This document shows, one piece after another, positions 1-32,000 of a stretch of 32,000 nucleotides of DNA. The translations under genes and the position numbers were made by a program. Each line of letters starts with the position of its first letter. The first letter of the stretch is position 1. The DNA lies in NCBI GenBank assembly GCA_963677765.1, contig OY782392.1, positions 270,001 to 302,000 of the forward strand. Direction: 5' to 3'. A model generated the notes under the pieces. That model made no database searches. It was not told the DNA's origin and worked only from the letters and a program-made list of their open reading frames with translations. The DNA is from Candidatus Saccharimonadota bacterium (GTDB lineage Bacteria > Patescibacteriota > Gracilibacteria > BD1-5 > UBA6164).

Positions 1-580
1 CAACATATAAGTAAAATCTAGCTCAAGCAACATAATTATCTCTAGAAACTTGTTCTGATTTTGGTAATATAATTTGATTACCTTGATAATCAAATATAAC
101 TTTTGAACCTTCTACTAATTCAATTTTTACATTTATAACATCACCTTGTTTTCATTCAAACAACTCATATATTTTTTCTTTTTCACTATCACCAATTTTT
201 TGAATAATAACTTGTCTAGCAGCTTGTGATGCGATTCTACCAAAACTTTCTGCTGAATCACTGTTTTGAATTTCTTCAGTAACATCTAATTCTACAGTAT
301 CTCATTCTTCAAAACCTTCTGCATCATCTCATAATTCTTCAAAACTAATTTCCAAAGCAGGATTAGTTACTTCTTTAACAAGAGTTTTTTCTAAAGTTAT
401 TTCTAAAGATTCATTTTCTAAATCAATTTTTACATTAACTTCTTCATCTCTGTTACCATAATCTTTTTTATATGCTGTTTTTATTGCAGCTTCTATTATT
501 TCTATAAGTTTTTCTTGAGCTATATTTTTTTCTTTTGATATAAGATTTACAGCTTGTTTAATTTGTTTTATATCTAACAT
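1..580 (-). CDS. nusA: Transcription termination/antitermination factor NusA, N-terminal part (gene runs off the window start)
   Basis: ATG at 580-578. N-terminus is MLDIKQIKQAVNLISKEKNIAQEKLIEIIEAAIKTAYKK. Reading TGA (331-329 and later) as Gly keeps the frame open to position 1. This yields GRIASQAARQVIIQKIGDSEKEKIYELFEGKQGDVINVKI, the NusA N-domain/S1 junction. Confidence 0.9.
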
Positions 581-716
581 AATTAATTTTAATTAATATA
601 TAATTTTAAAACAAAACGAGAACTTGCCTATGCAAATCCCCGCCTTTGGTTGTCTTAATTACAAATATTATTATATTGTTTTATTTTTTTTTGCAATAGA
701 TATTTTACAAAAAAGT

Positions 717-745
717 AAAAGCAGAATTTATAAATTCTGCTTTTT
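717..745. terminator. Bidirectional intrinsic terminator (A-tract, GCAGAATT/AATTCTGC hairpin, T-tract)
   Basis: aaaa-gcagaatttataaattctgc-ttttt. The stop of mini-gene A (746-744) abuts the T-tract. Confidence 0.7.
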
Positions 746-920
746 AGCTAACGACAGGTTGTCCTGCAACTGGTTTTTTACCAAAGTCTTTAACAAAAGT
801 TTCAACTGACATATCACAAGTAGATTCACCACCATGTGCATCTGATTTTGCAACAACAACTCTACCGAAAGAAACACTTTTTACTTTATACCCATAATAT
901 GGTTTATTTGCTTTGAGCAT
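744..920 (-). CDS. Mini-gene A: uncharacterised 58-aa protein, SD-led and TGA-free
   Basis: ATG 920-918 and TAA 746-744. Product: MLKANKPYYGYKVKSVSFGRVVVAKSDAHGGESTCDMSVETFVKDFGKKPVAGQPVVS. AAGGAG lies 5 nt upstream, with a consensus promoter and its own terminator. All 6 Gly are GGN. Below the size cut-off of the ORF track. Confidence 0.65.
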   Translation of the reverse strand: MLKANKPYYGYKVKSVSFGRVVVAKSDAHGGESTCDMSVETFVKDFGKKPVAGQPVVS

Positions 921-925
921 AAAAA

Positions 926-931
926 CTCCTT
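926..931 (-). promoter_or_regulatory. Shine-Dalgarno AAGGAG for mini-gene A
   Basis: Plus-strand ctcctt equals AAGGAG on the minus strand, with a 5-nt spacer to ATG 920-918. Confidence 0.6.
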
Positions 932-941
932 TTATTTTTTT

Positions 942-957
942 TGTACAATAATGTACA
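942..957. promoter_or_regulatory. Operator-like element TGTACA-N4-TGTACA in the leader of mini-gene A
   Basis: tgtacaataatgtaca: two palindromic hexamers 4 bp apart. It starts 5 nt downstream of the -10 box, overlapping the expected transcription start. Confidence 0.4.
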
Positions 958-962
958 CATAT

Positions 963-991
963 ATTATAAATAATTTTTATTTTTAAGTCAA
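963..991 (-). promoter_or_regulatory. Sigma70-type promoter of mini-gene A
   Basis: On the minus strand: TTGACT (991-986), 17-nt spacer, TATAAT (968-963). Confidence 0.6.
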
Positions 992-993
992 AT

Positions 994-1020
994 AAAAAGA
1001 AGCTTTAAAAGCCTCTTTTT
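994..1020 (-). terminator. Candidate terminator downstream of ftsZ
   Basis: Minus-strand AGAGGC-uuuuaaa-GCUUCU (one mismatch) followed by UUUUU, just after the ftsZ stop. Confidence 0.45.
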
Positions 1021-1026
1021 ATAAAA

Positions 1027-2214
1027 TTACATTTTTTTTCTTAAAAAACTTGGAACATCTAAATCATCTTCTGGTTTAGGAGTAGCTGGAGTTTGAGGAG
1101 CAGAAGGTGTAACTCTAGAATCAGTTACAGGTTTTCTACCAAATGGATTTGTTTTTAATGGTCTACTAGATTCTCAAGCATATTGATTATTTGATTCTTC
1201 ATCAAATCAAGTTGCTACTACAGTAATTTTTAATTCACCATTATATTCTTCATTGATAGTTGCACCAAATATAATATTAGCATCAGAATCAACAGTTTCA
1301 GTAATAATTTTAGCAGCTTCATCAACTTCAAACATTGATAAATCAGTACCTCAAGTAATATTAAATAACAATCATTTAGCTCAAGCTATAGAAAGTTCTA
1401 ATAATGGAGAGTCTATAGCTGATCTAGCAGCTTCAGTAGCTCTATTTTCACCACTACCATAACCTATACCCATTAATGCAGAACCAGCATTTTGCATAAC
1501 AGAAGTAACATCAGCGAAGTCAACATTAATTAAACCTGGTTGAGTAATTAAGTCAGAAACACCTTGTACTCATTGATTTAAAATTTCATCTACTATTGAG
1601 AATGCATCTAATAATGGAGTTTTTTTATCAATAATTGATAAAATTTTATCATTAGGAATTGTTATAAGAGTATCAACTTTTTCTTTTAAATTAGTAAATC
1701 AATCTAAAGATTTACTCATTCTATTTTGTCATTCAAAACTAAATGGTTTTGTAACTATTCATACAGTTAAAGCTCATAATTCTTTTGCAACTTCAGCAAC
1801 AACTGGAGCAGCTCAAGTACCAGTACCTCAACCTAAACCACAAGTAATAAAAATCATATCTGCTCCTTCTAGAGTAGATTTAATTTCTTCTCTTGATTCT
1901 TCTGCAGCTTTTTTACCAATTTCTGGATTAGCTCAAGCTCATAATCAATTTGTTATAATTTTTCAGATATTTAATTTAGTTGGAGCTAAAGAATTATATA
2001 AAGCTTGAGTATCAGTATTAATAGAAACAAATTCTACTCATTCTAAACCTCATTCTATCATTCTATTAACAGCATTTTGCCCAGCTCAACCTACTCATAC
2101 AACTTTTATTTTTGCAACTGGTGATATTGTATTGTTTAATTTAATTTCTTGAGGACCTGTATCTTGGTTACCTCATAAAAGATTTTTTAATTTATCTTCT
2201 CTTCTAGTAGTCAT
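1027..2214 (-). CDS. ftsZ: Cell division GTPase FtsZ
   Basis: 396 codons are open with TGA=Gly. Tubulin signature [37 protein letters not shown], with two of its Gly encoded by TGA (rc of 1828-1830 and 1813-1815). Also NVDFADV and the C-terminal tail [16 protein letters not shown] at 1029-1027. Confidence 0.97.
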
Positions 2215-3767: not shown

Positions 3768-4967
3768 ATGAAGTCATTTTATACAATATTTCAGGCAGTT
3801 CTATTTTTGATTCTGATAAGTAATTCAGTGGCTTTTTTCTTGTTCCCAAAAATTATAAAAAATGTATCTGATATTAACCAATTAGTTATATTTATACTTA
3901 TATCAGTTATATACTTTTTAGTTATAATGATGTTAATAAATAGATACTTCCACAATCCCATAAAACAATTAGAATTAACTATAAAAAAATTTTTAGTCTG
4001 AAATCTAAAAGAAAGCAAAATAACATTTGAAAAATCAGATAACTCTCACATAAACTATATAACAAGTTTCTTCTCTAAGACACTAAATACTTTAAAAAAT
4101 ATTAAAGATGAATTCATACATGGTAAAGAAATAAAATGAGAAGTAGAATTAGGTAAAGAAATTCAATGAAAAATGCTAAAAAAGAAACTACCTGATGTTC
4201 CTAGCCTAGAAGTAGTAGCAAAATCAAAACCTGCATGAGAAATTGGTTGAGATAGTTTTGATATAATACAACAAGATGATAATTATTATATTTATGTTTG
4301 AGATGCTACATGACATGGTGTTTGAGCATGATTTATAATGATAATGGTAAATGCATTAGTTAGTTGATTTTCAAAAGTATACAAATCTTGATCATTGATA
4401 TTATCAAAAACAAATGAGATAATTAAACCTAGAGTAAAAGCAAATTTACTTATGAGTATGCTTTTAGTAAGATGGAATGAAAAAGAAAAAAGATTATTCA
4501 TGACTTGAGCATGACATGAATATTTGATGATTTACAAACACAAATTAGGAAAAACATTTAGAATAAAATCATGATGAGTAGCTATTTGAATGATTAGAGA
4601 TTCAAGCAAATTATTAAAAGATAAAGAAATAAGTTTTGAGCCAGGAGATATAGCTGTTTTATACTCTGATTGAATAACAGAAGCTATAAATAGACCTGCT
4701 AGAGATTGAACTGAACAAATATTTTGAGAAGATAGATTAGAAGAAACAATAAATAAGGCTCCTAATGTACCATGAAAAGAATACAAATCTGCTAGAAGTG
4801 TTTTCAACGAAATAACAAAAAGTTTATCAAAATTTATGTGATATAAACATATACAATTAGATGATGTTACTTTGGCTGTTATACAATATAAACCAGACTG
4901 ATATAATAAAGAACAAGATTTTAGTGATGAAATACCAAAAGATTTTATTACTGAATGGAATTGGTAA
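3768..4967 (+). CDS. Membrane-anchored PP2C-type (SpoIIE/RsbU family) serine phosphatase
   Basis: Two N-terminal hydrophobic segments. PP2C motifs: AGEIGGDSFDI, YIYVGDATGHGVGAGFIM, VLYSDGITEA and DDVTLAVIQY. 400 codons, ending EWNW-TAA (TGG used for Trp). Confidence 0.85.
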
Positions 4968-8275: not shown

Positions 8276-8307
8276 AAAAAGATGAAATAAATTTCATCTT
8301 TTTATTT
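8274..8307. terminator. Bidirectional terminator shared by the convergent symporter and DUF1846 genes
   Basis: aaaaaaa-gatgaaa-taaa-tttcatc-tttttatttt. The DUF1846 stop (8304-8302) lies in the T-tract. Confidence 0.7.
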
Positions 8308-9354
8308 TAATCTAGATTTTAATTTATTACATCTTTCTAACCATATATTTGAACCATTTCATCTATCTATTATTTTTTTATACCAATTTATTCTTCTATC
8401 TATTTCCTCTATTGAAGCTTTTTTTACTATTTCTTCATCCAAAATACAAAATCAAGCAGTATTAATTCACATATCAGTTGGTGATTTATATTTATTAGTA
8501 AAATTTGTTTCTTCTAAAAATTCAACTGATAATTTTTTTACTATATCAAAAGCTTCAATATCTCTATTATAATTAACACTCAGCATTTTATATGCATCTT
8601 TATGATAACTATCTATAACATTATAATCTCATATATCAGCTGTTGCTGCTTCATAAGCCAAATTAACTGGATGATCAAGTGGCAAATTCCAAATTGGGAA
8701 AGTTTCATATTTAGCATATCAAGAATCTTTTCAATCAATAGTTTCTAGATATATTTGTCATAAACAAGTAGACATTTTTCAACTAGAACTTGCAGCTCAA
8801 GTTACTAATACTATATCTTTATTTACCGGTATATAATCATCTCTTCAATAACCCAAATCAGATAAAACATATTTAACATCATTTGGATATCATTTTATAT
8901 CAAATCTAAAATATGAATTATATCATTTTTGTTTTAATAATTTAGAAAAATCTTTTACATAAGATAAGTTATCATCATTAACCCTATTTATAGAAATATA
9001 TGAAATTATTCATAATTGATTCTTTATATCATCAATCATTGATAAACAATAATCATTATAACTTATATCATCACTTGATAATTGCCTATTTAATTTTAAA
9101 TCAATAGCATTTATACAAAAAATAACATCAGCTTTTTCTTTTATTTTTGAGAAAATTCTTTTTTTAGAATCTGGAAAAAATCATGGTAAGACTCTTGATG
9201 CATGTGGATCATATAAAAACTTTCAACCTATTTCTAAATATAGTCTATTTTCAAATTTTTCCATCCTATCCAAAATAGAATTTGATTGCATATCTATATA
9301 TTTATATCAATCAAATCATACTTTATCATAAGTAATTATATCATTTGTGCTCAT
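8302..9354 (-). CDS. DUF1846 (UPF0371) family protein, short form
   Basis: [83 protein letters not shown] and SPTDMGINTAGF match my memory of Firmicute UPF0371 proteins. 350 aa. Confidence 0.85.
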
Positions 9355-10069: not shown

Positions 10070-10098
10070 AAAAAACTAGGATAATTCCTAGTTTTTTA
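10070..10098. terminator. Bidirectional terminator shared by rplK and the convergent ATP-grasp gene
   Basis: aaaaaa-ctagga-taat-tcctag-tttttt. The TAG stop of the ATP-grasp gene (10090-10088) is inside the right arm. Confidence 0.75.
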
Positions 10099-11338
10099 TT
10101 TTGATTAAATTTTTATAATTTTTTTCTAAAAATAAATAATCTGATTTAAAAATATCTAAATCATTATTTTTTAATCTTACAGCAGCTAAACTTCAAAATC
10201 AATCTTTTGTAGATCAATACATATTCCCTATGTTTTGTTTTGATAATCTAAGAGAACTAAAAGATTTTAATTTTTGAATCATAGACAGTAATTCATTATC
10301 ATATCAATCAAAAATTCATTTTGATAAAGCATAAAACACAAATACAGCATTAGAAAAATCAGAATTTGGTTCCAATGTTTTTCACAAAGGCATCTCCAAT
10401 AAATTGAATCCGTATAAGTTTTGCATCATTTCTAACCTGTAACCTCAAATTCTAGCATTTAATTCAATATTTTTTAATACTCATTTAGAGTTTAATTTAA
10501 AATCTTGAAATATATAAGTATTTTTTATTCAAAATGCTTTAACTTGTTTATCTACAAATTCTTTTACCATATCTATCGGAAGCTCTGAATCTATTATTTT
10601 TCAGTTTAATCTAACATAATTAAAAAAATCATCTATTCATATTTTTTCTGCTCAGTTAACTTTTACAACTGGAGAATAAAATATTTCTCAATCATTATTT
10701 ACAAAATAAACAATAGTATACATTTCTCAATCTATAAACTCCTCAATTAAATAGTTATTATTAACTATTCATCTATTTGTCATATTTGTTTCTAAGTCTT
10801 TAGCATTTGCTATATATTTTTTTAAATCATCAATATTATTAATTTTACTAACTCAAGAGCTTTGTACTCAAGAACTAGGTTTAATAATATATGGAAAATC
10901 TAAATAATATGCATAATCTTCAATATCTTGATCCAAATCAATAGATTTATACTTCACTGTTGTTTCAGGATAGCTTTTTAATAGAATATCTCTTTGCTTA
11001 TCTTTTTTTCTAAAAGATTCATAATGAGTTGAAACATTTAGTCATAAATTCAACCTTAAATCATGTACAGTAGGAACAATTACTTCATCAAAAGTATTTA
11101 TATAAAATATATTATCTATATTTTTTATTTGATTTAGTAAATCATTAAAAGAGTCATAAAAAAATATTTTTAGAAAATCATTTTCTTTTAATTCAACAAT
11201 TTTAGAAAAATCTGTAGTTTTTCTTTCAAAAAATGCATATGTAATTATAGAATTATTTTTATACAATTCGTTGTAAGCAAACTCATAATAATCATGCATT
11301 TTGTATCATCTAGATACATTTACAAAGATTTTATTCAT
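10088..11338 (-). CDS. ATP-grasp domain ligase (substrate unknown)
   Basis: YIIKPSSGVQSSGVSKI, LIEEFIDGEMYTIVYF and IELNARIGGYR, which fit the ATP-grasp fold motifs. 416 aa. Confidence 0.75.
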
Positions 11339-11447: not shown

Positions 11448-11522
11448 GCTCCTATCGTCTAGTGGCTAGGACGCGACCCTCTCACGGTCGAGACAGGGGT
11501 TCAATTCCCCTTAGGAGTACCA
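11448..11522 (+). tRNA. tRNA-Glu (anticodon CUC), CCA encoded
   Basis: Acceptor GCTCCTA/TAGGAGT. D-arm TCGTCTAGTGGCTAGGAC is as in bacterial tRNA-Glu. Anticodon stem-loop CGACC-CT-CTC-AC-GGTCG. T-arm AGGGG-TTCAATT-CCCCT, then discriminator A plus CCA. Confidence 0.9.
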
Positions 11523-13139: not shown

Positions 13140-13143
13140 AATC

Positions 13144-14589: not shown

Positions 14590-15705
14590 TTATTTAATAA
14601 TAGTTTTTTTAGTTTCTAAATATTTTCATAAAAAAACTTGGATAACTGCTGCTGCAGGAACTGAAAATATTATTCAAATAATACCAAATAGACTAGCTCA
14701 GATTGTCATAGAAATAAGTACTGTAAATGGAGATAATGACAAAGTTTTTCACATTATATATGGAATTAATATATTTCACTCTACTTGTTGAATAATTAAA
14801 TAAACTATAAGTATTGCGAAAAATCATTCAACTCAAGCTCATAATCATACCAATAATGCTATAGCAAGAGATATAAAAGTTCAGATATAAGGTATAAACT
14901 CCATAAATCAAGCTATCAAAGCAAGTGTAAATATTCATTCTATTTCAATTCAGAATAACTTTAGTATAAAAAGTGAAATAAGTGTTATAAAAAACATTGC
15001 TATTGATATTATTATTTGTCATTTAAACCATTCACCAAGAGTAGAAACAACATCTTTTTCATTATTTAATAAGTATTTTGAAAAATCATAAGGTATTATT
15101 TTATAAAAAAACTTTCTTATAGATTTTCTTTCTAAACTTATAAAAAAAGTAAATATAAAAACCATAACTAGATTAAATAAAACTGATGTAACTCAAGTAA
15201 TAATTCAAGCTCAACTAGAGATCAATCATGATAGATTATCACCAAAAAACTTAGATATTTGTGATATATTATCTTTTAAAGAATTCAAAACTTGTTCTAT
15301 TTCTATTTTTGATATTATATTTTCTAGATAAATAGGCAATCAAAATCATGATACTCCTGATTCTTTATAAATACTTAACCATCAATTAACACTTTTTGAT
15401 AAATAATCAAAAAATCAACTAACTTGATTAGCTACAAGTGGTATTACAGAAAACAAAAATATAAATATAAGTAAAGAAATTATAAAAAATATAATTATCA
15501 TTCAAAAGAAATCATTTATTTTGTATCTATTTAAAAAATTCAAAAATGGTGAAAATAATACAACTATAAATATAGAAAATAATAATATAAATATTATATT
15601 TATAATACTAAATAACAAATAAGCCAAAACAGCAAATAATAAAATTATCAACAACTTTGAAATAAATAATTTATTTGAATCAAATGAAAGTATATTTTTA
15701 TTCAT
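14590..15705 (-). CDS. AI-2E family transporter (PerM/YhhT-like)
   Basis: 371 aa polytopic protein. FMEFIPYIGTFISLAIALLV and LIIQQVEGNILIPYIMGKTLSLSPFTVLISMTIGASLFGIIGIIFSVP are typical of PF01594. Confidence 0.88.
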
Positions 15706-17979: not shown

Positions 17980-18375
17980 ATGAATATAGAAAAAATTTTA
18001 AAAGATAATAAAAACAGAGTTACTCCTGAGAGAATAGCTATTTTTAATTTTTTAAAAACAAAACATTTATTTACATATAACGATATAACTAAGAATTTTT
18101 CAAACATATGAAGATCTAGTATTTTTAGAACTCTAAACTTATTTTTAGATATTTGAGTTATTAGAAAAGTAGATATATGAGATAATACAAGTACTTATGA
18201 ATTAAACGACCACAATCATCATCATGAGCACATGAAATGTAGTAATTGTAATGATATAATTAGCTTCCATTCAGATAAAATTTGTAATCAAATATTTGAA
18301 GAAGCAAAAAAACTATGATTTGAGATAAAACAACACAATATATGAATTGTATGAACTTGTAAAAAATGTATATAA
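17980..18375 (+). CDS. zur: Fur-family metalloregulator, probably Zur
   Basis: N-terminal winged helix (RVTPERIAIFNFLKTKHLFTYNDI, SSIFRTLNLFLDIGVIRKV). HHHEHMKCSNCNDI and GTCKKC form the CxxC...CxxC site. The Zur assignment comes from the adjacent Zn genes. Confidence 0.8.
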
Positions 18376-18394
18376 TTAATTAAAAAACAAAAAA

Positions 18395-19600
18395 ATGAAA
18401 AAAATACCTGTTACAGTGTTATCATGATTTTTATGAGCATGAAAAACAACTCTATTAAACCATATATTAAAACAAAGATGAGATAAAAAAGTTGCTCTTA
18501 TAGTTAATGATATGTGAGAAATAAATGTAGATGCAACCCTAGTAAAAAATTGAAATAACCTATCAAAAACAGAAGAAAAGTTAGTAGAAATGGATAACTG
18601 ATGTGTATGTTGTACACTTAGAGAAGATTTACTTATAGAAGTAGAAAAATTAGCCAAAGAAGGAAAATATGACGCATTAATTATAGAATCATCTGGTATT
18701 TCAGAACCAGTACCTGTAGCACAAACTTTTAGTTATATAGATGAAGAAACAGGTGTTGATTTAACTAAATGGGCAGAATTAGATTCTATGGTTACAGTAG
18801 TTGATGCTTATAATTTTTTAGACCAATTTTGAAGCGATAAAACTCTAGCTGATATAAAAATATGACTTAGCGATGAAGATGATAGGCCTTTGGTTAACTT
18901 AATAGTAGAACAAATAGAGTTTTGTAATATAGTTATTCTTAATAAATGTGACTTAGTATCAAAAGAAGAGTTAAAATATATTAAATGAATTATAAGATGA
19001 TTACAAGCAGATGCAAAAATCATAGAAACAACTAATTCTAAAGTAGATATATCAGAAATAGTTGATACTAAACTATTTGATTATGATAAAGCTACTATGA
19101 GTCCATTATGGATAAAAGAATTAGAGTCATGATGACATCACACTCATGTATCTGAAACTGATGAATATTGAATTACATCATTTGTATACAAAAGATATAA
19201 ACCTTTTCATCCAGAAAGATTTTTAGAAATCATAAATAAAACATGGCCTTGAGTAGTTAGATCAAAATGATTAGTATGGATTGCTTCTAGAAATGATTAT
19301 GCATGAAACTGGAGTTTGGCAGGTTGAAGTATAAAACTTGATGCTATGTGAAGATGGATGGCAAGTTTTTCTAGAGAAGAAAGAATTGCTTACGACCCTG
19401 TTCAAAATATGGAGTATGAAAAAGAGTATGTATGAAAAAGATTTTGAGATAGAACTAATGAATTTGTAGTTATATGAGTAAAAATGGATAATCAAGAAAT
19501 AGAAAAATTATTAGATTATGCATTAGTTACTGATGAAGAAATGAATAATCCAGAAAAATGGTCAGAATTTGAGGATAATTTACCAAAGTGGTTTATATAG
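18395..19600 (+). CDS. COG0523 (CobW/ZigA/YeiR-type) zinc metallochaperone GTPase
   Basis: GFLGAGKTTLLNHIL, with three of its Gly encoded by TGA (18425-27, 18434-36, 18440-42). CxCC motif GCVCCT, plus ESSGISEP and NKCDL. 401 aa, TAG stop. Confidence 0.92.
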
Positions 19601-19624
19601 TTTATAAATTAATAATAATTAAAA

Positions 19625-20611
19625 ATGAAAAAAATAATTTTAAGTTTAATTGCCTTAATATTTCTTAGTTCTTGTACACAACAAGCAAAAATAGAAGATA
19701 ATAATAAAGAAGTCGAAAATAAAAAAATAAATATAACTACTTCTATAATCCCTTTAGCTTCAATTTCAAACTATATAGGTTGAGATTATGTAAATGCTAG
19801 TTCTCTAGTTCCAGTTTGAGTAAGTGCACATTGATATGATATGAAAGCTAATCAAATGGTTCAAATACAAGATTCTGATTTAATAGTATATTTATGATTA
19901 GAACACATAGATTGATTTTTAGAAAAAGCTTTAAATGAAAATAATAATTATATTAAAGTAGCTGAATGAATTAATCTTATAGAATGAGAAGAACATAATC
20001 ATGAACATGAAGAAGAAAGTCATGAAAATGATGAAGAACATCATGATGAAGAACATGAAGATGAACATAGTGAAGAAAATCATGAAGAAGAATCTCATAC
20101 AATAGATCCACATGTATGGACAAGCTCAAAAAATGCTATATTAATAGCTCAAAAAATAACAAATGAACTTGTTAATATAGACTCTAAAAATGCTGATTAC
20201 TATAAAAGTAATTTAGATAATTTTACTAATGAATTAGATACTATAAAAAATGATTTCATTCAAAAAAATAAAGATTTAAATCAAAAAGAATTTATTATAT
20301 TTCATGATGCTTATAATTACTTATTTGAAGAATTATCTATAAAACAAGAAAATAAAATCATATTTCAATCAAATGTTTTAAGTGATCCAAATTCAAAAGA
20401 AATGAAAGAATTAGTTGATGAAATAAATTTACATTGAATAAATATAGCATATAAAGAACCTCAACTAAATGATAGTAATTTACAAATGCTTGCAAATGAA
20501 TATAATATAAGAGTTGAAGTATTAAATCCCCTATGAGATGATGAGTCAAAAGATTGATATATAAACAACTATAAAAATAACCTAGAAAATTTAAAATATA
20601 TTTATGAGTAA
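19625..20611 (+). CDS. znuA: Zinc ABC transporter substrate-binding lipoprotein ZnuA with His/Glu-rich loop
   Basis: Lipobox LIFLSSC, plus DPHVWTS and FHDAYNYL. The acidic/His loop EEHNHEHEEESHENDEEHHDEEHEDEHSEENHEEESH is encoded at about 19983-20100. Confidence 0.9.
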
Positions 20612-21347
20612 AGATAAATCAAAACAAGAAATACTAAAACTAGAAAAAATAAATTTATCATATAACAATAAAAAAACTTATGTCTTAAAAGACATAAGTT
20701 TTTCAGTGTTTTCTTGAGAAATATTAAGTATTATTTGAGTTAATTGAGCTTGAAAGTCTTCCCTATTAAAAATAATAGCTTGAATTCAAAAGCAAAATTC
20801 TTGAAAAATTATAAAAAACTATAAAAAATTATCTTATGTTCCTCAAAAAATAAGTATAGATAAGAGTTTCCCTATCTTGGTATCTGAGTTTATAAAAATA
20901 TATAATATCTGAGTAAAAAAAGATGAAATAAAAAAACTATTAATTGAGTTTGATGCAGAAGATTTATTTGATAAAAAAATATGAGATTTAAGTTGATGAC
21001 AATTACAAAAAATTTTAATAATATCTGCTCTTATTTCTTCTCCAGATATTATATTACTAGATGAACCTACAGCATGAATAGATATAATTTGAGAAGAAAC
21101 TTTTTATAAAATAATAAAAAATGTACAAGAAAAATACCCTAAATTATCTATAATACTTGTATCTCATAATATAAAACTAGTTTATAAAAACAGTGATAAA
21201 GTTATATGTCTACATGAAAATAATTTTTGCTGCCACTGAACACCATTAGAGGTATCGTCAAATAAAATAACAGAAAGTTTATTTTGAAAATATACTCTTC
21301 CCTATAAACATAATCCACATAATAAAAATAATCATAAAAATATATAA
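20604..21347 (+). CDS. znuC: Zinc ABC transporter ATPase
   Basis: Walker A GVNGAGKSS (Gly from TGA at 20736-38, 20745-47, 20751-53), signature LSGGQLQK and Walker B ILLDEPTAGID. The start ATGAGTAA overlaps the znuA stop by 8 nt. Confidence 0.92.
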
Positions 21348-21350
21348 AAT

Positions 21351-22154
21351 ATGTTAGAAATATTACAATATAGTTTCTTTCAAAATGCTATAATATGATG
21401 AATACTAATTTCATTAATTGCTAGTATACTATGAACTTTCATAGTTATGAGAAAAGAAGCAAACATAACACATTCAATAGCAAATTTTTTATTTTTGGGT
21501 ATAGCAATATCATTATTGCTATCAGCTAATTATTATTTGTTAGCATTTATATTTGCAATTATAGCTAGTTTAATAATTTTTTTCATTGAAAAAACTAACT
21601 TTATATCAAAAGAATCTACAAAAGAAATAATATCTCAAGCATGAATAGCATGATGAATATTTACTACTTGATTTATATGAAACTTAAGCCTAGATATAAA
21701 TAACTTCTTATTTTGATCTATTTTGTTTATAAATAAAACTGATATAGTATTTTTAATAATATTTACAATTATTTGTTATATATTATTTTTTATATTTAAA
21801 GAAAAGTTTTTAAGCATAATAATAAACGAAGATATAGCTAAGTCTAAATGAATAAAAGTAGATTTATATAACTTATTATTTTTAATATTTTTATCATTAT
21901 TTATATCAATAAGTATAAAAATATTTTGAATATTATTAATTGGAGCATTCTTAATAATACCAGCAAATACTGCAAAACTAATATCTCCTAATTTAAAATA
22001 TGTATTTATAATCTCTATAATTATTTCTTTAATATCAGTTATAATTTGATTATATAGTTCATATTTATTAGAAACTTCTTCTTGAGCAACTATAGTATTA
22101 ATTTTATTACTATTTTTTATAACTTCTCTAATAATAAAAAACACTAGAAATTAA
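21351..22154 (+). CDS. znuB: Zinc ABC transporter permease (ABC-3 family)
   Basis: 267-aa polytopic protein with LIGAFLIIPANTAKL. Begins 3 nt after znuC. Confidence 0.88.
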
Positions 22155-23175: not shown

Positions 23176-23203
23176 AATAAAAGCTAGTATTATAACAAAT
23201 GAT

Positions 23204-23209
23204 AGGAGG
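23204..23209 (+). promoter_or_regulatory. Shine-Dalgarno AGGAGG for mini-gene B
   Basis: AGGAGG followed by a 6-nt spacer to ATG 23216. Confidence 0.65.
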
Positions 23210-23215
23210 TGTAAT

Positions 23216-23416: not shown

Positions 23417-23427
23417 TTTTCTACAAA

Positions 23428-23460
23428 CAAAAAAAACTCAAGATTTACTTGAGTTTTTTA
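23428..23460. terminator. Bidirectional terminator shared by mini-gene B and convergent copA
   Basis: aaaaaaaa-ctcaag-attta-cttgag-tttttta. The copA stop (23460-23458) is in the T-tract. Confidence 0.75.
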
Positions 23461-25593
23461 TTTAAAGTTTTTAAGTCTAAGACTATTAGCTAATACACTA
23501 ACACTACTCATAGCCATAGCAAAACTTGCGAATATAGGATTAAGTAATCAAAATGCAGCTAAAGGAATACATACAGAGTTATATAAAAATGCCCAAAATA
23601 AGTTCTGCTTAATAGTTAACAAAGTTTTTTTAGATAAAATTATAGAACTATAAACCTTATCTAAATCTCATTTAACTAATACTATATCACTTGACTCAAT
23701 TGCTACATCACTTCAAGTTCACATTGCAATTGATAAATCTGCTTGAACCAATGCTGGAGCATCATTTATTCAATCTCAAACAAAAGCTACTTTTCTATTG
23801 TTTTTTTGATATTCTTTTATATAAAATAATTTATCTTCTGGCATTACCTCCGATATAACTGTATCAATTCATATAGATTTAGCTATGTAGTTAGCAGTAT
23901 TTTTTGTATCCCCTGTCAACATAACTGTTTTTATTCAATTTGAATGAAGACTATTTATAGTTTTTTCAACTCATGCTTTAGCTAAATCCAATAATGCTAA
24001 TATTCAATATATTTCTTGATTAGTTCCGATTATTATTGGAGTTTTTCATTCTAAAGTTAATTTATCAATAAATTTTTCAACCTTAAAATCCAAACTTGGA
24101 AATAATTTTCTATTTCATAATAATATAGTTGTTCATTGATATTCAGCTTTTATTCATTTTCATTTTATTTCTTCAAAATTATTTAAATCGAATTTAGAAA
24201 TATTACTAGCATATGAAGAAATCGATTTAGATAATGGATGGTGAGATAAATCAGATAATGAAACTCAATACTTTAATATTTCATCCTTTGTTTTAGATAC
24301 TTCAATTATATCTGTAAGCTCTGGTTTTCAATTGGTAAGTGTCCCCGTTTTATCAAAAAATATAACATCAACTTTTGAAGTTTTTTCTAAAGTAGCCGCA
24401 TTTTTTATTAGTATTCATGACTTTGCTCATCTTCAAGTTCATACCATTATTGCTGCTGGAGTTGCAAGTCATAAAGCACAAGGACAAGCGATAACCAAAG
24501 TAGCGACAGCAGGAACAATAGAGGTTTCAATACTTCATGTTATATAATACCATGAAATAAATGTAACTATGGATATTAATATAATAATAGGAACAAATAT
24601 TCATGATACTTTATCAGCAACTTTTTCAATTGGAGCCTTAGAGCTTTGAGCTTCTTCTACCATTTTTATAATATTTGAAAGAGTTGAGTTTTCATTTGTT
24701 TCAGTTACCTTTATATTCAAGCTTCAATCATTATTTATAGTTGCTCAAAAACATTTATCTCAGATTTCTTTATAAACAGGAATACTTTCTCAAGTTAACA
24801 TTGATTCATCAACATTAGCAGATCATTTTATAACTTCACCATCTAAAGCAATCTTTTCTCATGATCTAACTACCAAAATATCTCATACTTTTATATCATC
24901 TATATCCTTTTCAACTATACTTCAATTTATATCTATATATGCTTTTTTAGTTCAAAGTTGTAATAGTTTTGATATAGAATCTCATGCTTTAGATTTTGCT
25001 TTATGCTCTAAATATTTTCATAAATTAATAAGAGTTATAATGGCAACAGCAGCTTCAAAATAGACATGTTTATCATAAAACATAGCAACTGATGAATATG
25101 AAAAGGCACTAAATGTTCATAAAGAAACTAAACTATCCATATTAAAATGAAATTTTAATAAAGAAGAAAAAGCACTTTTATGAAAATGAAATCAAAATCA
25201 AAAAACTACAATAAAAGAAAGTATAAAATATATATACATTAATATATCTACACCCAAAAACTCTATTCATATCATAAAGTTTCAAAACATCATTGAGAAT
25301 ACAGGAATAGAAAACAATGCCGAAAATAAAAATCTATTAAATATTTTTTTATTTTGAGACTCTTTATTTTTATCACTTATTTCGATATTTTCTTCTATAG
25401 AAAATCAATTTGATTCTATTATTTTTTTTATATCAGAAAAAGATATTTCTGATTGCGAATACTCAATACTAGCAGTATTAGTTGCTAAATTTATTTTTAC
25501 TTGGTTTATTCAATTAGTATTTAACAAACTTTTTTCATTTAAAACAACACAGCTAGCACAAGTCATTCATTTTATTATAAATTTTTTATGCAT
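23458..25593 (-). CDS. copA: Copper-translocating P1B-type ATPase
   Basis: N-terminal HMA domain KGMTCASC, TM6 CPC (VIACPCALGLATP), DKTGTLT, and GDGINDAP (both Gly are TGA, rc of 23776-78 and 23770-72). Also MLTGD. 711 aa. Confidence 0.95.
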
Positions 25594-25598: not shown

Positions 25599-26942
25599 TT
25601 ATTTAATTATAATTTGTCACTGTGTCATTCACATACTAGCACAAACCATACTATATTTTCATGGTTTAGCATCATATATTTCATAAACTATAGGCTCTCA
25701 TGCTTTTACTTGATGTATTTCTGTAGAAATTCAAGGTAAAACCAAAGTAGACATACATCAAAGACCATTTGATGTAGGCATTATAGTTATTTTATAGTTT
25801 CATCATGCTTCTAGTTCAACTATTGCTGGACTTGTTTGATATCAGTTATGCTTAACAAAAACTTCTTCTAAGCTAACATTTTCTTTTTTATCTCATGATG
25901 CATTTAATAAATCTTGTACTTCTGAAGAGCTATTAGTACTAGAGTTAAAAGGATTAAAATCAATAAATTTTATTAAATTATAAGAATTAATTAATGTGAA
26001 AATTCAGAAAAATACTACTATAGATCAAAGTATTTTTGTAAGTATGGTAAATTTTTTTCATTTAAAATAACTAGATCAAAGTCAAAGTGCCAAAAATACT
26101 GGAGTTGTTCATAATGCAAAAAGGAACATAACTAATCATCCTTGCCAAAAACTTCAACTTGATATAGCTAATAGTTGCATAGTTTGAGTAAATCAACAAG
26201 GTAAGAAAAATGTTAAAGCTCAAACTATAGGTGCAAATTTTGGATGTCAAAAAGATTCTATTTTCTCAGTAAATCATTTAGGCATATGAATTCAATACTT
26301 TGTTATACTTGGAACAATTCCCAAGATATTTAATCACATATAAAAAAGTAAAAAACCTACTAAAAATGTTATAATAGAATTTATAGTAAAGTTTATACTA
26401 AAAAATGAACCAAAATATCATAAAATTCAACCAAAAATAAAAAAACCTAATAGTCTTCATATTTGAAATGAAGTTTGAACTTTTAAATGACCTAAAAATC
26501 AATGTCATTTATCTAAATATCTAGAAAAACCTACTATTATTCATCAAGTTATAGCCAAACATGTAGAAACAGAAGCTATAAGTCATATAATAATTGCACT
26601 AAAATAATTTATACTAGAAGTATCAGGAATAATACTATATATATCAAATAATTTTGAAGATATTAAAAGAATAATAACAAATAAAAATGCTATTATATTT
26701 CATAATATATTATCCAATGAAACTTCTTGTTTTTTGTCAGTTTCTAATACACTAAAATTATTTTTTTCTATAATTTTTACTAATTCTTTATATTTAGATT
26801 CATCTAAGTACTCTACTTCCATAATCCCCTTCTTATAACTTAGCATAAGAAGTTTTACTCATTCTAAATTTTTTATTTCTCTATCTAAAATAGTTTCACA
26901 ACTTATACAATGCATTCATTTAATCTGTATCTTTTTTTTCAT
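25599..26942 (-). CDS. HMA domain / DsbD_2 (UreH-TauE-like) membrane domain / C-terminal cupredoxin-like domain fusion protein
   Basis: IKGMHCISCETILDREI (HMA). Polytopic core with STCLAITGG and FFLPCGFTQTMQLLAISSGS. C-terminus YKITIMPTSNGLGCMSTLVLPGI...AKPGKYSMVCASMGMTQG. Its stop lies 5 nt before the copA ATG. Confidence 0.82.
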
Positions 26943-27451: not shown

Positions 27452-28657
27452 TTACTTTCTAATTCATAACTTAGAACTAAATCATTTTCATATAAGATCC
27501 ATTCAAAAACAAATTTTATGACTATTATATTTTTTGTTTATAGAGTTAACCAATGTATATAGTCAATTATTCATATTATTTTCGTTTTTATAGTTTTCAA
27601 ATAATTGTATTTGATGAAAACTATTATTTTTTAAATCAGAAAATATTAATCAAGTACTTCTATATAAATTAGAACTATTATATGAAAAGTAAAAAAGTTG
27701 TTTTACTATCTCCAATAAAATTCTTCTATCACTTGTATGATAAGATAATTTCTTTTCAAAAAAATAAGTTTTTTTATCCAAATATCTATAAAATAAAATA
27801 ACTTTTTTTGTTTCATACTCTTTTATGATAAATTCTTCAAATAAATAGTTAAAATTTATAATAAGCTGTTTATATAAGAAGTCTTTATTATTTGTAATAT
27901 TTTTATTGAAACTTCTTCATCTACTAATTGATTTTGAAATCTTATTTTTTTTAACTACATAAGAATTAACTCAATTTAATTCTAACCATAAATCACAATA
28001 TGTTTTTCATAGATTATTTTTTATGTACCAAAAACCTAAAGATAAAAAATCATATATATTATCACACTTAAATTTTAATTTTTGAACACTTGCTTTTCAT
28101 ATAAATGGTACTTTAGATAAAGATAAGCTTTTATACAAATCATTATTAGTATCTATTTCTATAAAAATTCAATTAGGCTTATTTATTTCAGAAAAAATCT
28201 TAGATTTTATTCTAGTATTACTTACTCAAATACTAACAGGAATTCAAATATATTTTTTGATATCTTGTTGTAGTTTTTTAATATATTTATACAAACTAAG
28301 ATTATTTAATTCAGCTATTCAAGTTATTTCACAAAAAGCTTCATCTATAGAAAATTGTTCAACAGAAATAAGATTTTCCTCTAAATATGTCATTAATCTA
28401 GAAGATACTATACTATAATAATCATGATCAATATCTAAAAAAATAGCTCAAGATTTTAAAATTTCTTTTGCTTGCCAGACAGGTGTTCAGGTTTTAATAC
28501 CCAATGCTTTAGTTTTATAATTACACGCTAAAACTATTTCTTTTCAAACCAAAACATATTTATTTTTCAAACTAGGATTTCTTAATATCTCACACTCTGC
28601 AAAAAAACTATCACAATCTATATGAGCAAACAATTTATTTGATTTTTTAAACTTCAT
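27452..28657 (-). CDS. dinB: Y-family DNA polymerase IV
   Basis: FAHIDCDSFFAECEILRNPSLKNK, FSIDEAFCEITG, VSIGVSNTRIKSKIFSEINKPNG and SKVPFIGKASVQKL. 401 aa. Confidence 0.9.
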
Positions 28658-28713
28658 AATATTATATATACAATATATATACTATATTATATATTTTTTA
28701 AAAACAAATACAA

Positions 28714-28741
28714 TAAAAAAAGACTATAATAGTCTTTTTTT
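28714..28741 (-). terminator. Intrinsic terminator downstream of the 89-aa membrane-protein gene
   Basis: aaaaaaa-agactat-aa-tagtct-tttttt palindrome. Confidence 0.65.
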
Positions 28742-29009
28742 ATATTTTGAAACCAAAAAATGTTTTCTTTTTTGTTTTAACATAAACATAATCCCACCAA
28801 TGCTCTGCTAATATATAACCACAAACTACAATATATACAGATAAAATAATTCTTTCTATATTTAAGTCTTGATTAAAATATGATAACACAAGATATGGAA
28901 AAACAGTAACCATGTATAATAAACAAATTACACATAAAAAATAAATAGCTTTTTTCAAATATAACATTTTTAAAAATTTAATTATAAAATATATAAATAA
29001 TTTTATCAT
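28740..29009 (-). CDS. Small membrane protein (89 aa), uncharacterised
   Basis: Standard-code ORF with a TAA stop. Contains 2-3 hydrophobic helices and a WW pair encoded by TGG TGG. Divergent from mini-gene C. Start choice is uncertain. Confidence 0.5.
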   Translation of the reverse strand: MIKLFIYFIIKFLKMLYLKKAIYFLCVICLLYMVTVFPYLVLSYFNQDLNIERIILSVYIVVCGYILAEHWWDYVYVKTKKKTFFGFKI

Positions 29010-29048
29010 ATAAAAAAATCAAAAGCAAAAAACAAAAAAAATAGAATA

Positions 29049-29075
29049 TTGACATTTGTGTTTTTTTATTATAAT
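29049..29075 (+). promoter_or_regulatory. Promoter of mini-gene C
   Basis: TTGACA (29049-54), 15-nt spacer, TATAAT (29070-75). Confidence 0.5.
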
Positions 29076-29079
29076 AAAA

Positions 29080-29102
29080 ATCTCTAAATTTAAATAAGAG
29101 AT
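29080..29102 (+). promoter_or_regulatory. Leader hairpin/dyad immediately upstream of the SD of mini-gene C
   Basis: ATCTCT (29080-85) and AGAGAT (29097-29102) flank the 11-nt loop aaatttaaata. Confidence 0.35.
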
Positions 29103-29105
29103 GAA

Positions 29106-29111
29106 AGGAGG
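29106..29111 (+). promoter_or_regulatory. Shine-Dalgarno AGGAGG for mini-gene C
   Basis: AGGAGG followed by a 4-nt spacer to ATG 29116. An in-frame ATG at 29101 has no SD. Confidence 0.55.
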
Positions 29112-29115
29112 ATTT

Positions 29116-29265
29116 ATGACAATATTATTATTGTTAAAAAAAATATTTGTTACAATAGCTTTTATGATTGCTTTTCTGAGTATAGGCATAGTCAGTGATG
29201 ACCAATATCAAAATGCTGTTATAACACCGGGTGATCAAATGATAATTGATTTTTTCAAGAAATAA
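29116..29265 (+). CDS. Mini-gene C: 49-aa single-pass membrane/secreted peptide, SD-led and TGA-free
   Basis: MTILLLLKKIFVTIAFMIAFLSIGIVSDDQYQNAVITPGDQMIIDFFKK. Uses GC-rich codons that are rare elsewhere (CTG, GGC, GTC, CCG). Has its own promoter and a strong terminator. Not in the ORF track because it is under 60 aa. Confidence 0.5.
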   Translation: MTILLLLKKIFVTIAFMIAFLSIGIVSDDQYQNAVITPGDQMIIDFFKK

Positions 29266-29277
29266 AATCACCTATAA

Positions 29278-29320
29278 ACTCAGTTATTATTAATTAATAT
29301 AATAATTGAGTTTTTGTTTT
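29278..29320 (+). terminator. Strong intrinsic terminator after mini-gene C
   Basis: 13-bp stem (29278-29290 pairs with 29299-29311, one G-U), 8-nt loop taattaat, then tttttgtttt. Confidence 0.75.
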
Positions 29321-29373
29321 GTATTAAAATAAAAAAATATTAAAATATAAAAAATATTTATATAAAATTAAAA

Positions 29374-30117
29374 ATGATATCAAAAGAAAAACAAAAATTT
29401 ATAAGAAGCTTACATAAAAAATCAAACAGAATAGATTTATGATTATTTTTAGTAGAGTGAGAAAAATCTATAAAAGAACTAATAAACTCTAATATAGAAA
29501 TAAAAAATCTATATATAAGTGAAAAATTTGAAGAAAAAAACAAAGATATATTAATAAATATAGAATATAATATATCAGATGAAAAAACTATAGAAAAATT
29601 ATCCACTATAAAATCAAATAATTCAGGTATAGCAATTGCTATAACACCAAAAAATAAAGAACTAAAAATACAAAAAGATGCTATAACTATAATACTAGAT
29701 ACAATAAATGACCCAGGAAACTTAGGTACAATAATAAGAATATGTGATTGGTACTGAATAAAAAATATAATTGCAAGTAAACAAACTGTTGAGTTCACAA
29801 ATCCCAAAGTAATATCTTCAACTATGTGATCAATATCTAGAGTTAATATAACATATACTGATTTGGAAAATTATTTATCAAATAAAAATGATGATTTAGA
29901 TATATATTGAGCATTTTTAGAATGAGAAAATATACACAAAATAAAAAATGAAAAAAATATATGAAAATATCTTATAATATGAAATGAATCAAATTGAATA
30001 AGTAAAGAAATAGAAAAATTTGTTACTAAAAAAATAACTATTCCCTCTTTTGGATGAGCTGAAAGTTTAAATGCATGAGTAGCTTGTTGAATTATTATAG
30101 ATAATCTAAAAAGATAA
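29374..30117 (+). CDS. SpoU/TrmH-family RNA 2'-O-methyltransferase (RlmB-like)
   Basis: ILDTINDPGNLGTIIRICDWYG, IIGNESNGIS and GGAESLNAGVACGIII. 247 aa. Confidence 0.88.
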
Positions 30118-30148
30118 AAGCCTTAGCTATCTGCTAAGGCCTTTTTTG
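30116..30148. terminator. GC-rich bidirectional terminator lying inside the 3' end of the convergent patatin gene
   Basis: gccttagc-tatct-gctaaggc followed by cttttttg. The hairpin encodes the last codons (KKALADS-stop) of the minus-strand gene. Confidence 0.75.
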
Positions 30149-30914
30149 TTTCTTTATATCATAAATCTATAAACTCTTTTATTTTATCAAAACTATAATA
30201 ATCTAAATCTCAAAAATTTGGTTGAATAATTACCCCTTTTCATTTGGTATTTTCTATAGATTTTAATTCATTTTGTTTCATCATAAGCAAAGTCATTCTA
30301 TGAAAAACTTCATAATTATATTCAAAAAATGATTTTTTAGTATTAAATCATAAAAATTTTTTCATTTTTGATAATCTTCAAACTTTTTGTTTTAATGCAC
30401 TTATTCAAATAATATTTTCTCAGTCTAATATATCTACAGGTAAATTATTTACTATTCAACCATCCATATATGTATTATCTCATATTTCATAAGGCATAAA
30501 AATTCAAGGAAGACTTAAACTAGCTCTAACTGCATCGGATATTTTTCATTTAGTAAAAACTTCTTTTTCTCAAGTTTCTATATTAGTTGCTACTATTTTT
30601 AAATCTATATCTAAATCTTCTATATTTTTATTTCAAAAAAGTTCATCCAAAGTTTTTTGAAGTTTTTTTCATTTTATAAATCAAAAATTAAATCAAAAAT
30701 CTATAAGTTTATAAATCTTTAGTTCATTAGCAATATTTTCTATTTCAGCTGAATTATTTCAACATGCATATAATGCTCAAACAATAGCTCACATTGAAGT
30801 TCATGAAATTTCTTTTATTTCATAATCATTAGTTTCAAGATATCTTAACACTCATATATGTACTAGTCATCTTGCAGCTCATCATCAAAGAGCTAATGAT
30901 ATTTCTTTTTTCAT
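30123..30914 (-). CDS. Patatin-like phospholipase (RssA-like)
   Basis: LALGGGAARGLVHIGVL (oxyanion hole, four of its Gly are TGA), GTSMGAIVGALY (GxSxG) and MDGGIVNNLP (catalytic Asp). 263 aa. Confidence 0.9.
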
Positions 30915-30924
30915 AATTTTAAAA

Positions 30925-31374
30925 TTAAATTCATTTAGAAGACAAACTTCAATTTGATAATATATTATTGATACTATTTTTTATTTTTTCAAAGTCTATT
31001 TTATTTTTCTTTTTAGCTAAAACATCATATACTAGTGTATCTTGTTTTTCTGTTCAGTAATTTTCTATAAAAACTTTAAATCAAATAAGAATTTTACCTG
31101 ATTTAACTTTTTCTATAGTATCTTTGTCATAGGCTTTTTTTTGAGAATTATTTAAATTTATAGATTCTACATTATATCATTTATCTTCTAAAAAATTATA
31201 AATACCTAAAAAACTAGTTCAATTATAATCATTTAAAAGTTCTATAAATGATAAGTTTCTTTCAATAATAGATTCTTTTATTCAAGGGAAAGCTTGTTTT
31301 AAGGCATAAGTATGTTGTTCTCTCATATCATCAAGACTAAGAGATGATTTAAAATGATTTGGATTCATAGTCAT
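30925..31374 (-). CDS. Hypothetical protein (149 aa), co-transcribed with the patatin gene
   Basis: 150 codons are open with TGA=Gly. Its stop is 10 nt before the patatin ATG. No recognised motif. Confidence 0.65.
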
Positions 31375-31406
31375 AATATACATTACAATAATTTAAACTA
31401 AATTTA

Positions 31407-31434
31407 TTTATAAATATTTTTTAAAACTTTGCAA
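31407..31434 (-). promoter_or_regulatory. Candidate promoter for the hypothetical-patatin operon
   Basis: On the minus strand: TTGCAA (31434-29), 16-nt spacer, TATAAA (31412-07). Confidence 0.35.
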
Positions 31435-31442
31435 GTTAATTA

Positions 31443-31470
31443 AAAAGAAGACTAATAAAGCCTTCTTTTT
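31443..31470 (-). terminator. Terminator downstream of tex
   Basis: Minus-strand AGAAGGC-uuuauua-GUCUUCU (one G-U) followed by UUUUU. Confidence 0.55.
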
Positions 31471-31471
31471 T

Positions 31472-32000
31472 TTAATTAAGTCATTTCATAGAAAGTTGAA
31501 TCTTTCAAGTTTTTTCATCTATAGAAGTTACTTTAACTTTTACATTTTGTCACACTTCTAATACTTCTTTTGGATCTGATATAAATCTATCAGTAATTTG
31601 ACTAATATGTACTAATCAATCATTTTTTGTACCTATATCTACAAATGCTCCAAATGCTAAAACATTTCTTACAACTCATTCTATAATATCTCATTCTTTT
31701 ATATCAACACTATCTCATGATAAATTAGCCTTTTTATGAGTAGAATTAACTCTTTTTTCTTTTCATATTTCATTATATGATTTTATAATAAAATCTATAG
31801 TTTCTGAATTTGCATCACTATATAATGAAGTAATGGCTTCTTTATTTTTTTCAAAATCTCAAGGTTTTATATTGTTTTCAATTATATATGAAGCAAGACC
31901 ATATTGTTCTGGATGAATATCAGTATTATCTAATTTTTCTTCACTATCAGGAACTCTTAAAAATCATACAGCTTGTTCATAAACTTTTTCTGATAATTGT
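31472..32000 (-). CDS. tex: Tex-like RNA-binding transcription accessory protein, C-terminal part (gene starts beyond the window end)
   Basis: AVGFLRVPDSEEKLDNTDIHPEQY, then the C-terminal S1 domain GDIIEGVVRNVLAFGAFVDIGTKNDGLVHISQITDRFISDPKEVLEVGQNVKVKVTSIDEKTGKIQLSMK. TAA at 31474-31472. Confidence 0.88.

Follow-up and report, generated by a model that had tools for sequence, protein, structure and literature searches.

The stretch of DNA analysed here, hereafter the window, comprises 32 kb of contig OY782392.1 (positions 270,001 to 302,000) with a G+C content of 22.8%, and the subject of this report is the meaning of the codon TGA in its genes. The window carries nusA, ftsZ, ftsA and rplK, a tRNA gene, several transporter genes, a zinc-uptake cluster and a copper-type ATPase gene (Table 1). 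It uses translation table 25, which reads UGA as a regular codon for glycine and terminates at UAA and UAG only, an assignment that the evidence makes practically certain.

Coding capacity and gene content

Read with the standard code (table 11), the window contains 19 stop-free frames of at least 100 amino acids, the longest of 184 amino acids, and open reading frames (ORFs) of at least 60 amino acids, counted from ATG, GTG or TTG to the stop, cover 24% of it. With TGA taken as a sense codon, 57 stop-free frames of at least 100 amino acids are obtained, the longest of 714 amino acids. Thirty-one frames were tiled on this basis, and the 29 credible genes among them occupy 89.4% of the window (coding density 0.894), which bears out the statement of an earlier note on this DNA that the conserved genes are broken under the standard code. 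Two ORFs, g02 (630-986) and g27 (28740-29189), lie in intergenic gaps, have no homologues and show an odd composition, and were dropped as doubtful. Reading TAG as sense brought no gain in ORF structure (25 frames of at least 100 amino acids, the longest still 184), and TAA as sense was rejected since its 70 frames reach only 300 amino acids, versus 714 with TGA.

The 29 credible genes hold about 507 in-frame TGA codons, one per 19 codons. All 31 ORFs together contain 508 in 9,744 codons, versus about 194 expected from base composition. Among the 30 ORF 3' ends that lie inside the window, TAA is used 27 times, TAG three times and TGA never. The TAG stops close the genes of the VirB4-like ATPase (g06), the ATP-grasp protein (g10) and the COG0523 GTPase (g18), exactly the three for which the earlier note gave them.

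For Pfam searches of the window proteins, every TGA was written as X, which left the identity of the amino acid undecided in advance. Profiles were nevertheless covered end to end across dozens of masked positions, for example positions 2-386 of 387 in the SDF profile with 33 TGA codons, and CopA, with 43 TGA codons in its gene, was matched in its E1-E2 ATPase and Hydrolase domains. Table 11 breaks each conserved gene into fragments, as would be seen if the standard code applied and the TGAs were real stops; the region would then be pseudogenised or mis-sequenced, or would depend at each site on programmed read-through or selenocysteine. The full-length Pfam matches spanning the TGAs, the essential genes among those affected (ftsZ, ftsA, rplK and nusA) and the lack of any gene ending in TGA speak against this explanation.

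Table 1. Features of the window, with the number of in-frame TGA codons. L054, L055 and L056 are the ftsZ neighbourhoods of three relatives specified in the text.
Feature	Coordinates	Strand	TGA codons	Evidence and remarks
nusA, 5' part (g01)	1..580	-	4	runs off window start; Pfam NusA_N, E = 4e-27; 29% identity to E. coli NusA
ftsZ (g03), 395 aa	1027..2214	-	21 (of 43 Gly codons)	Pfam Tubulin and FtsZ_C; 44% identity to E. coli FtsZ
ftsA (g04), 411 aa	2244..3479	-	30	Pfam FtsA and SHS2_FTSA; syntenic in L054-L056
SpoIIE/PP2C-type phosphatase, N-terminal membrane segment (g05)	3768..4967	+	22	Pfam SpoIIE; C-terminal EWNW
VirB4/TraG-like P-loop ATPase (g06), 616 aa	5106..6956	+	29	TAG stop; Pfam P-loop_TraG/AAA_10/DUF87; GTG start at 5106, aligned with the V-start of relatives
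Sodium:dicarboxylate symporter family transporter (g07), 413 aa	7034..8275	+	33 (94% of Gly codons)	Pfam SDF, E = 8e-93; aligned with E. coli GltP/DctA
DUF1846 protein (g08)	8302..9354	-	17	Pfam DUF1846, E = 9e-102
rplK, ribosomal protein L11 (g09), 154 aa	9601..10065	+	3 (of 14 Gly codons)	Pfam Ribosomal_L11_N and L11; 46% identity to E. coli L11
ATP-grasp protein (g10)	10088..11338	-	19	TAG stop; Pfam ATP-grasp_4
tRNA-Glu(CUC), CCA encoded	11448..11522	+		ARAGORN; Rfam tRNA, 62.6 bits; sole tRNA of the window; syntenic in L054-L056
Hypothetical g11	11627-12448	+	17	no Pfam match; stop-free only with TGA as sense
Hypothetical g12	12459-13139	+	8	no Pfam match; stop-free only with TGA as sense
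Hypothetical g13	13178-13861	-	11	no Pfam match; stop-free only with TGA as sense
Hypothetical g14	13882-14574	-	14	no Pfam match; stop-free only with TGA as sense
AI-2E/PerM family transporter (g15)	14590..15705	-	23	Pfam AI-2E_transport
Na/Pi cotransporter family protein (g16), 655 aa	15926..17893	+	32	Pfam Na_Pi_cotrans; aligned with E. coli YjbB
Zinc-uptake cluster (g17-g21)	17980..22154	+	65 in total	
Zur/Fur regulator (g17)	17980-18375	+		Pfam FUR
COG0523 GTPase (g18)	18395-19600	+		TAG stop; Pfam cobW and CobW_C; motif alignment with E. coli YeiR
ZnuA (g19)	19625-20611	+		Pfam ZnuA; His/Glu-rich loop
ZnuC (g20)	20604-21347	+		Pfam ABC_tran; motif alignment with E. coli ZnuC
ZnuB (g21)	21351-22154	+		Pfam ABC-3
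Copper-type P1B ATPase CopA (g23), 711 aa	23458..25593	-	43	Pfam E1-E2_ATPase, Hydrolase, HMA; 33% identity to E. coli CopA over residues 3-711
HMA domain fused to DsbD_2-type membrane protein (g24), 447 aa	25599..26942	-	35	Pfam DsbD_2 and HMA
Y-family DNA polymerase, DinB-like (g26)	27452..28657	-	17	Pfam IMS and IMS_C; aligned with E. coli DinB
SpoU-family RNA methyltransferase (g28)	29374..30117	+	12	Pfam SpoU_methylase
Patatin-like phospholipase (g29), 263 aa	30123..30914	-	25 (93% of Gly codons)	Pfam Patatin; aligned with P. aeruginosa PlpD
Tex/YhgF-like protein, 3' part (g31)	31472..31999	-	10	runs off window end; Pfam S1 and HHH_9; 33% identity to E. coli YhgF

Amino acid encoded by TGA

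Sixteen homologues from E. coli K-12, an organism with the standard code, were aligned to the X-masked window proteins. At the 306 TGA columns E. coli has Gly 168 times (55%), Ala 30 times, Ser 15 times, and Trp and Cys once each. The Gly background being 8.0%, this excess has a binomial P = 8e-100, and enrichment for Gly in homologues had been set as a test beforehand. The GGN codons of the window are opposite Gly in 68% of cases. In a BLOSUM62-based likelihood comparison of the possible meanings of TGA, Gly is ahead of the next-best residue, Ser, by 233 log-likelihood (lnL) units and of Trp by 360; the same procedure returns the standard meaning for GGT, TGG, AGA, ATA and TTA.

The glycines concerned include those of well-defined motifs. 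In the alignment of FtsZ with its E. coli counterpart, masked positions are opposite G in GMGGGTGTGAAP, and masked positions also face Gly in FtsZ GGGTGTG, ZnuC GPNGAGKS, YeiR GFLGSGKT, CopA GDGINDAP and TGE(S), and in L11. The motifs GGGAARG and GTSMG of the patatin-like protein are built from TGA, and alignment with PlpD of P. aeruginosa (PDB 5fqu) places Gly at eight of the nine TGA sites of its N-terminal motifs (GGAARG, GTSMG). The earlier note had listed TGA codons in such motifs, and its positions proved exact for the FtsZ T4-loop GGGTGTG (1828-1830 and 1813-1815, minus strand), the Walker A motifs of ZnuC (GVNGAGKS; 20736, 20745, 20751), COG0523 (GFLGAGKT; 18425, 18434, 18440) and the VirB4-like protein (SGGGKS; 5961), and CopA GDGINDAP (23776-23778 and 23770-23772, minus strand). 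The patatin GGGAARG and L11 TARATG motifs that it named contain four TGAs (30885, 30882, 30879, 30867) and one (10006), respectively.

A comparison independent of any translation table was made by aligning the window codon by codon with the ftsZ neighbourhoods of three relatives, L054, L055 and L056, from GCA_028689115.1, CP042461.1 and GCA_010119145.1 (NCBI Gracilibacteria), respectively. Opposite a window TGA, the relatives have TGA in 191 and GGN in 135 of 373 codons (87% together), and TGG in none. Window TGG is opposite TGG in 23 of 23 relative codons and opposite TGA in none. In all three assemblies the table-11 translation of ftsZ differs from the recorded protein. Together with the Gly excess at E. 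coli columns, the 87% share upholds the central claim of the earlier note, that TGA is read as glycine.

Translation table 4, by which Mycoplasmatales and a number of insect endosymbionts read TGA as Trp, would be in keeping with a TGA that is clearly sense in an AT-rich genome, and Trp is what some public records show. The database copy of the window FtsZ, P0001, on a contig of 1,048,296 bp, shows Trp wherever the gene has TGA (21 sites) and is for this reason a table-4 call; at least five Trp residues occur in 94 of the best 120 FtsZ entries, which points to table-4 calls there too, and NCBI FtsZ entries such as P0003 carry Gly. The Trp in these entries reflects the gene caller's choice of table and is not evidence for its meaning. 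In the E. coli alignments only 1 of 306 TGA columns has Trp (enrichment 0.5), versus 5 of 16 TGG columns (31%), a difference with P = 7e-48 if TGA behaved like TGG. The lnL difference of 360 in favour of Gly and the complete separation of TGA from TGG in the relatives also stand against Trp, as does composition: Trp would amount to 5.7% of residues, versus 0.46% from TGG alone, while Gly makes up 6.6% of residues if encoded by TGA and 1.4% without it. The earlier note had held that Trp is still TGG and had cited the EWNW sequence of the SpoIIE-type phosphatase, in which two TGG codons within 4953-4964 were found again; its exclusion of the Trp code agrees with these counts. The probability that TGA encodes Trp here is exceedingly small.

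The same alignments bear on the TGAs as real stops. Selenocysteine or Cys at TGA is rejected, as such a column occurs once in 306, and pseudogenes or sequencing errors are rejected because the TGA positions are conserved among the relatives. The approximately 507 in-frame TGAs are Gly-specific in position; in genomes that are 60-88% identical at the protein level, half of them remain TGA and another 36% are exchanged for GGN, a pattern that decaying genes would not show. The chance that these codons terminate translation is virtually nil.

Several points limit the case for UGA as a regular glycine codon without contradicting it. E. coli has a residue other than Gly at 45% of TGA columns, which is expected because pairwise identity is 20-45% and GGN codons miss Gly in 32% of cases too. 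At Gly sites conserved with E. coli TGA is slightly rarer than GGN (55% versus 68%; Fisher P = 0.04); without paralogous second comparators the pooled P is 0.07. Stratification by gene gives an odds ratio of 0.56, whose significance was not calculated. The effect is marginal and confounded by gene, and selection against TGA at conserved Gly sites is not claimed. ARAGORN found no tRNA-Gly(UCA) in the 32-kb window, only tRNA-Glu(CUC), and the window contains no release-factor gene, so that the decoding machinery is one that we infer. Finally, the sequence alone is compatible with UGA being misread at a low level, as Trp for instance.

A variant of this assignment is a table 25 with functional ambiguity, in which UGA would be mainly Gly and appreciably misread by the near-cognate tRNA-Trp(CCA), or tRNA-Gly(UCA) would wobble onto UGG, with selection keeping GGN at the glycine sites that are most critical or most highly expressed. 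Besides the deficit of TGA at conserved sites, this explanation can draw on the peptides with single Trp, Ala, Asp and Lys residues at UGA in a BD1-5 proteome (PMC4032931), on a possible U34 wobble noted in PMC8629427, and on the low TGA share of Gly codons in rplK (21%), nusA (36%) and ftsZ (49%), where GGT is preferred, versus 75-100% in most other genes. By its hand count the earlier note had put about half of the ftsZ Gly codons as TGA, which is correct, and three of 13 in rplK, where the total is 14. The low share could reflect ordinary codon bias at high expression, or an error-prone codon being avoided; a bias to GGT in highly expressed genes explains the gene-level trend equally well, and the statistics are weak. 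TGA, moreover, freely encodes invariant catalytic glycines, including all three in the Walker A motifs of both ZnuC and COG0523, both in GDGINDAP, and those of patatin GGG and GxSxG. Appreciable ambiguity is thus considered improbable.

Taken together, column counts, codon alignments and composition establish table 25, with UGA as an ordinary glycine codon, and they exclude pseudogenisation, table 4, and selenocysteine or Cys. No finding speaks against this assignment.

The taxonomic inference of the earlier note is in line with both FtsZ similarity and gene order. The best 120 FtsZ matches are 74-95% identical and include the closed genome 28_42_T64; the named proteins among them are all from 'Candidatus Gracilibacteria bacterium' (74-88% identity). 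The order rplK, VirB4-like, SpoIIE, ftsA, ftsZ, nusA and tRNA-Glu(CUC) are common to all three relatives, and in L055, as in the window, an SDF transporter gene separates rplK from the VirB4-like gene. FtsZ best matches and local gene order support a place for the window in Gracilibacteria/BD1-5, a lineage whose GTDB class is JAEDAM01 (gTranslate preprint). UGA = Gly is restricted to Gracilibacteria and Absconditabacteria (PMC8629427; gTranslate preprint), as the earlier note had stated for BD1-5 and SR1.

The spacer between ftsZ and nusA is 446 bp long, versus 140-165 bp in L054 and L055, and the non-coding gaps at 581-1026, 23077-23457 and 28658-29373 are long for a compact genome. The 716-bp gap between the divergent dinB and spoU genes contains the doubtful g27, whose C-terminal portion of about 75 amino acids resembles a small two-helix membrane protein. 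An Rfam search of the window returned the tRNA only, with no family matched in the long gaps. In the zinc-uptake region, which is a complete zur, COG0523, znuA, znuC, znuB cluster, ZnuA has a long His/Glu/Asp-rich loop, EEHNHEHEEESHENDEEHHDEEHEDEHSEENHEEESH. The genes for CopA and the HMA-DsbD_2 fusion (25599-26942) adjoin this cluster.

Codon choice, CpG depletion and decoding machinery

TGA accounts for 79% of the Gly codons of the window (508 TGA versus 134 GGN, a ratio of 3.8). In the same six genes of the three relatives and the window, TGA makes up 0.33, 0.45, 0.56 and 0.61 of the Gly codons at locus G+C contents of 0.330, 0.302, 0.244 and 0.228, respectively. AT mutation pressure would drive GGA to TGA, a single-base change that is synonymous under table 25, and the rise of the TGA share with falling G+C fits such pressure. 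That code-25 hosts use TGA heavily had already been described (PMC10746230).

Other codons have nearly or completely disappeared. GGC, CGA, CGC and CGG are used 0 times in the 9,744 codons of the 31 ORFs, and CGT four times, always in the hypothetical genes g13 and g14 (13489, 13306, 14322, 14040). CTC, CCG, CTG, GCG and ACG have at most four uses each, and 91% of Arg codons are AGA. In L054, the nearest relative, CGA, CGC, CGG and GGC are likewise absent from 5,624 codons. The window contains 76 CG dinucleotides where 414 are expected (symmetrised observed/expected ratio 0.18); GpC has a ratio of 1.39 and TpG/CpA one of 1.13. The CpG depletion weakens stepwise as G+C rises, from 0.22 in L054 through 0.45 in L055 and 0.63 in L056 to 0.99 in L029, a locus introduced below; methylation-driven decay and restriction avoidance are possible causes.

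A rather unlikely extension of these observations is that the very AT-rich BD1-5 sub-lineage comprising the window and GCA_028689115.1 is the far end of code-25 evolution, with UGA as the principal Gly codon and with CGA, CGC, CGG and GGC unassigned, or CGA and CGG reassigned as in Absconditabacterales. The window has no CGA, CGC or CGG codons, so there are no columns to score from which the meaning of CGA and CGG could be read. If true, the sub-lineage would be a naturally occurring intermediate in a process of codon capture, with extreme CpG depletion as the driving force.

From what is known of the clade, UGA would be decoded by a dedicated tRNA-Gly(UCA) that keeps the identity set of glycyl-tRNA synthetase (G1:C72, C2:G71, G3:C70, U73, C35), and release factor 2 (RF2, encoded by prfB) would be lost, release factor 1 alone terminating translation. 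Clades with UGA = Gly have tRNA-Gly(UCA) and lack RF2 (PMC8629427), none of the available BD1-5 genomes yielded a detectable prfB (PMC6851277), and proteomic proof of UGA = Gly has been provided (Hanke 2014, PMC4032931).

In the three syntenic relative loci ARAGORN detected tRNA-Glu(CUC) alone. An IUPAC pattern for a Gly-type tRNA(UCA), run over all GTDB species genomes, gave 38 matches. Five of the 38, none of them from the genome of the window, were checked with ARAGORN: two had no tRNA at the match, and three, at loci L029 (4485-4561), L045 (507-580) and L042 (2420-2493) in other genomes of the wider group, are real cloverleaf tRNAs(UCA) with the Gly acceptor set (G1 C2 G3 / U73). The ORFs beside the tRNA are TGA-rich in L042 alone of the three. 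In L029, from a metagenome-assembled genome (MAG) labelled Gracilibacteria (G+C 38.5%), there is no in-frame TGA in the 947 codons of two conserved neighbours, and in L045, from a Patescibacteria MAG (G+C 44.5%), none in the 2,309 codons of five conserved neighbours; none of these neighbour genes has a TGA stop. With scarcely any TGA nearby, the L029 and L045 tRNAs give weak support for tRNA-Gly(UCA), and they may represent a rare-codon stage of the reassignment.

Consequences for annotation and comparison with known systems

The choice of code decides every annotation in the window. With table 11 all genes fall to pieces. Table 4 restores the ORF boundaries and puts Trp at 508 glycine positions, including those in Walker A, GDGINDAP, the FtsZ T4-loop and the catalytic motifs of patatin; such mistranslation harms homology searches, structure prediction and residue-level inference for the clade.

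Table 4 is used by Mycoplasmatales, Hodgkinia, Nasuia, Zinderia and Stammera. These share with the window the capture of UGA from stop to sense in AT-rich reduced genomes, for which loss of RF2 is expected, and to gene callers the ORF boundaries under tables 4 and 25 are identical. The difference lies in the amino acid, Trp in these organisms and Gly in the window, where Trp is found at a single TGA column.

Table 25, the Candidate Division SR1 / Gracilibacteria code, goes back to Campbell 2013 and Rinke 2013, as cited in PMC8629427. The window agrees with it in having TGA at Gly columns, TGG for Trp, only TAA and TAG as stops, low G+C, a small genome (contig of 1.05 Mb) and a Gracilibacteria placement. 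It differs in degree only: TGA is the dominant Gly codon (79%) and not an 'additional' one. The assignment itself has been known since 2013 and was proteomically confirmed, and the window confirms this known reassignment once more. Its quantitative picture is one in which AT pressure makes a captured stop the majority codon for Gly while the whole Arg codon box empties.

According to Codetta (PMC8629427), Absconditabacterales have CGA and CGG reassigned to Trp, and certain Gracilibacteria have CGG reassigned. The window resembles Absconditabacterales in belonging to the same wider clade and in its very low G+C, its nearly extinct CGN codons and its use of AGA for Arg. In contrast to the Trp meaning of CGA in that group, CGA of the relative L056 is aligned with window AGA (19 cases) and is an ordinary Arg codon.

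The closed genome 28_42_T64 (CP042461.1; Sieber 2019, PMC6851277) shares with the window an FtsZ that is 82% identical by BLASTP (80% in our own alignment), the order rplK, SDF, VirB4-like, SpoIIE, ftsA, ftsZ, nusA together with tRNA-Glu(CUC), and code 25; prfB is reported absent from it (PMC6851277). It differs in its higher G+C (28.9% genome-wide, 30% in the locus) and in a TGA share of Gly codons of 0.45-0.48, versus 0.61-0.79 in the window. Unlike the window, it still has GGC, CGT and CGA codons, and its CpG observed/expected ratio is 0.45, versus 0.18.

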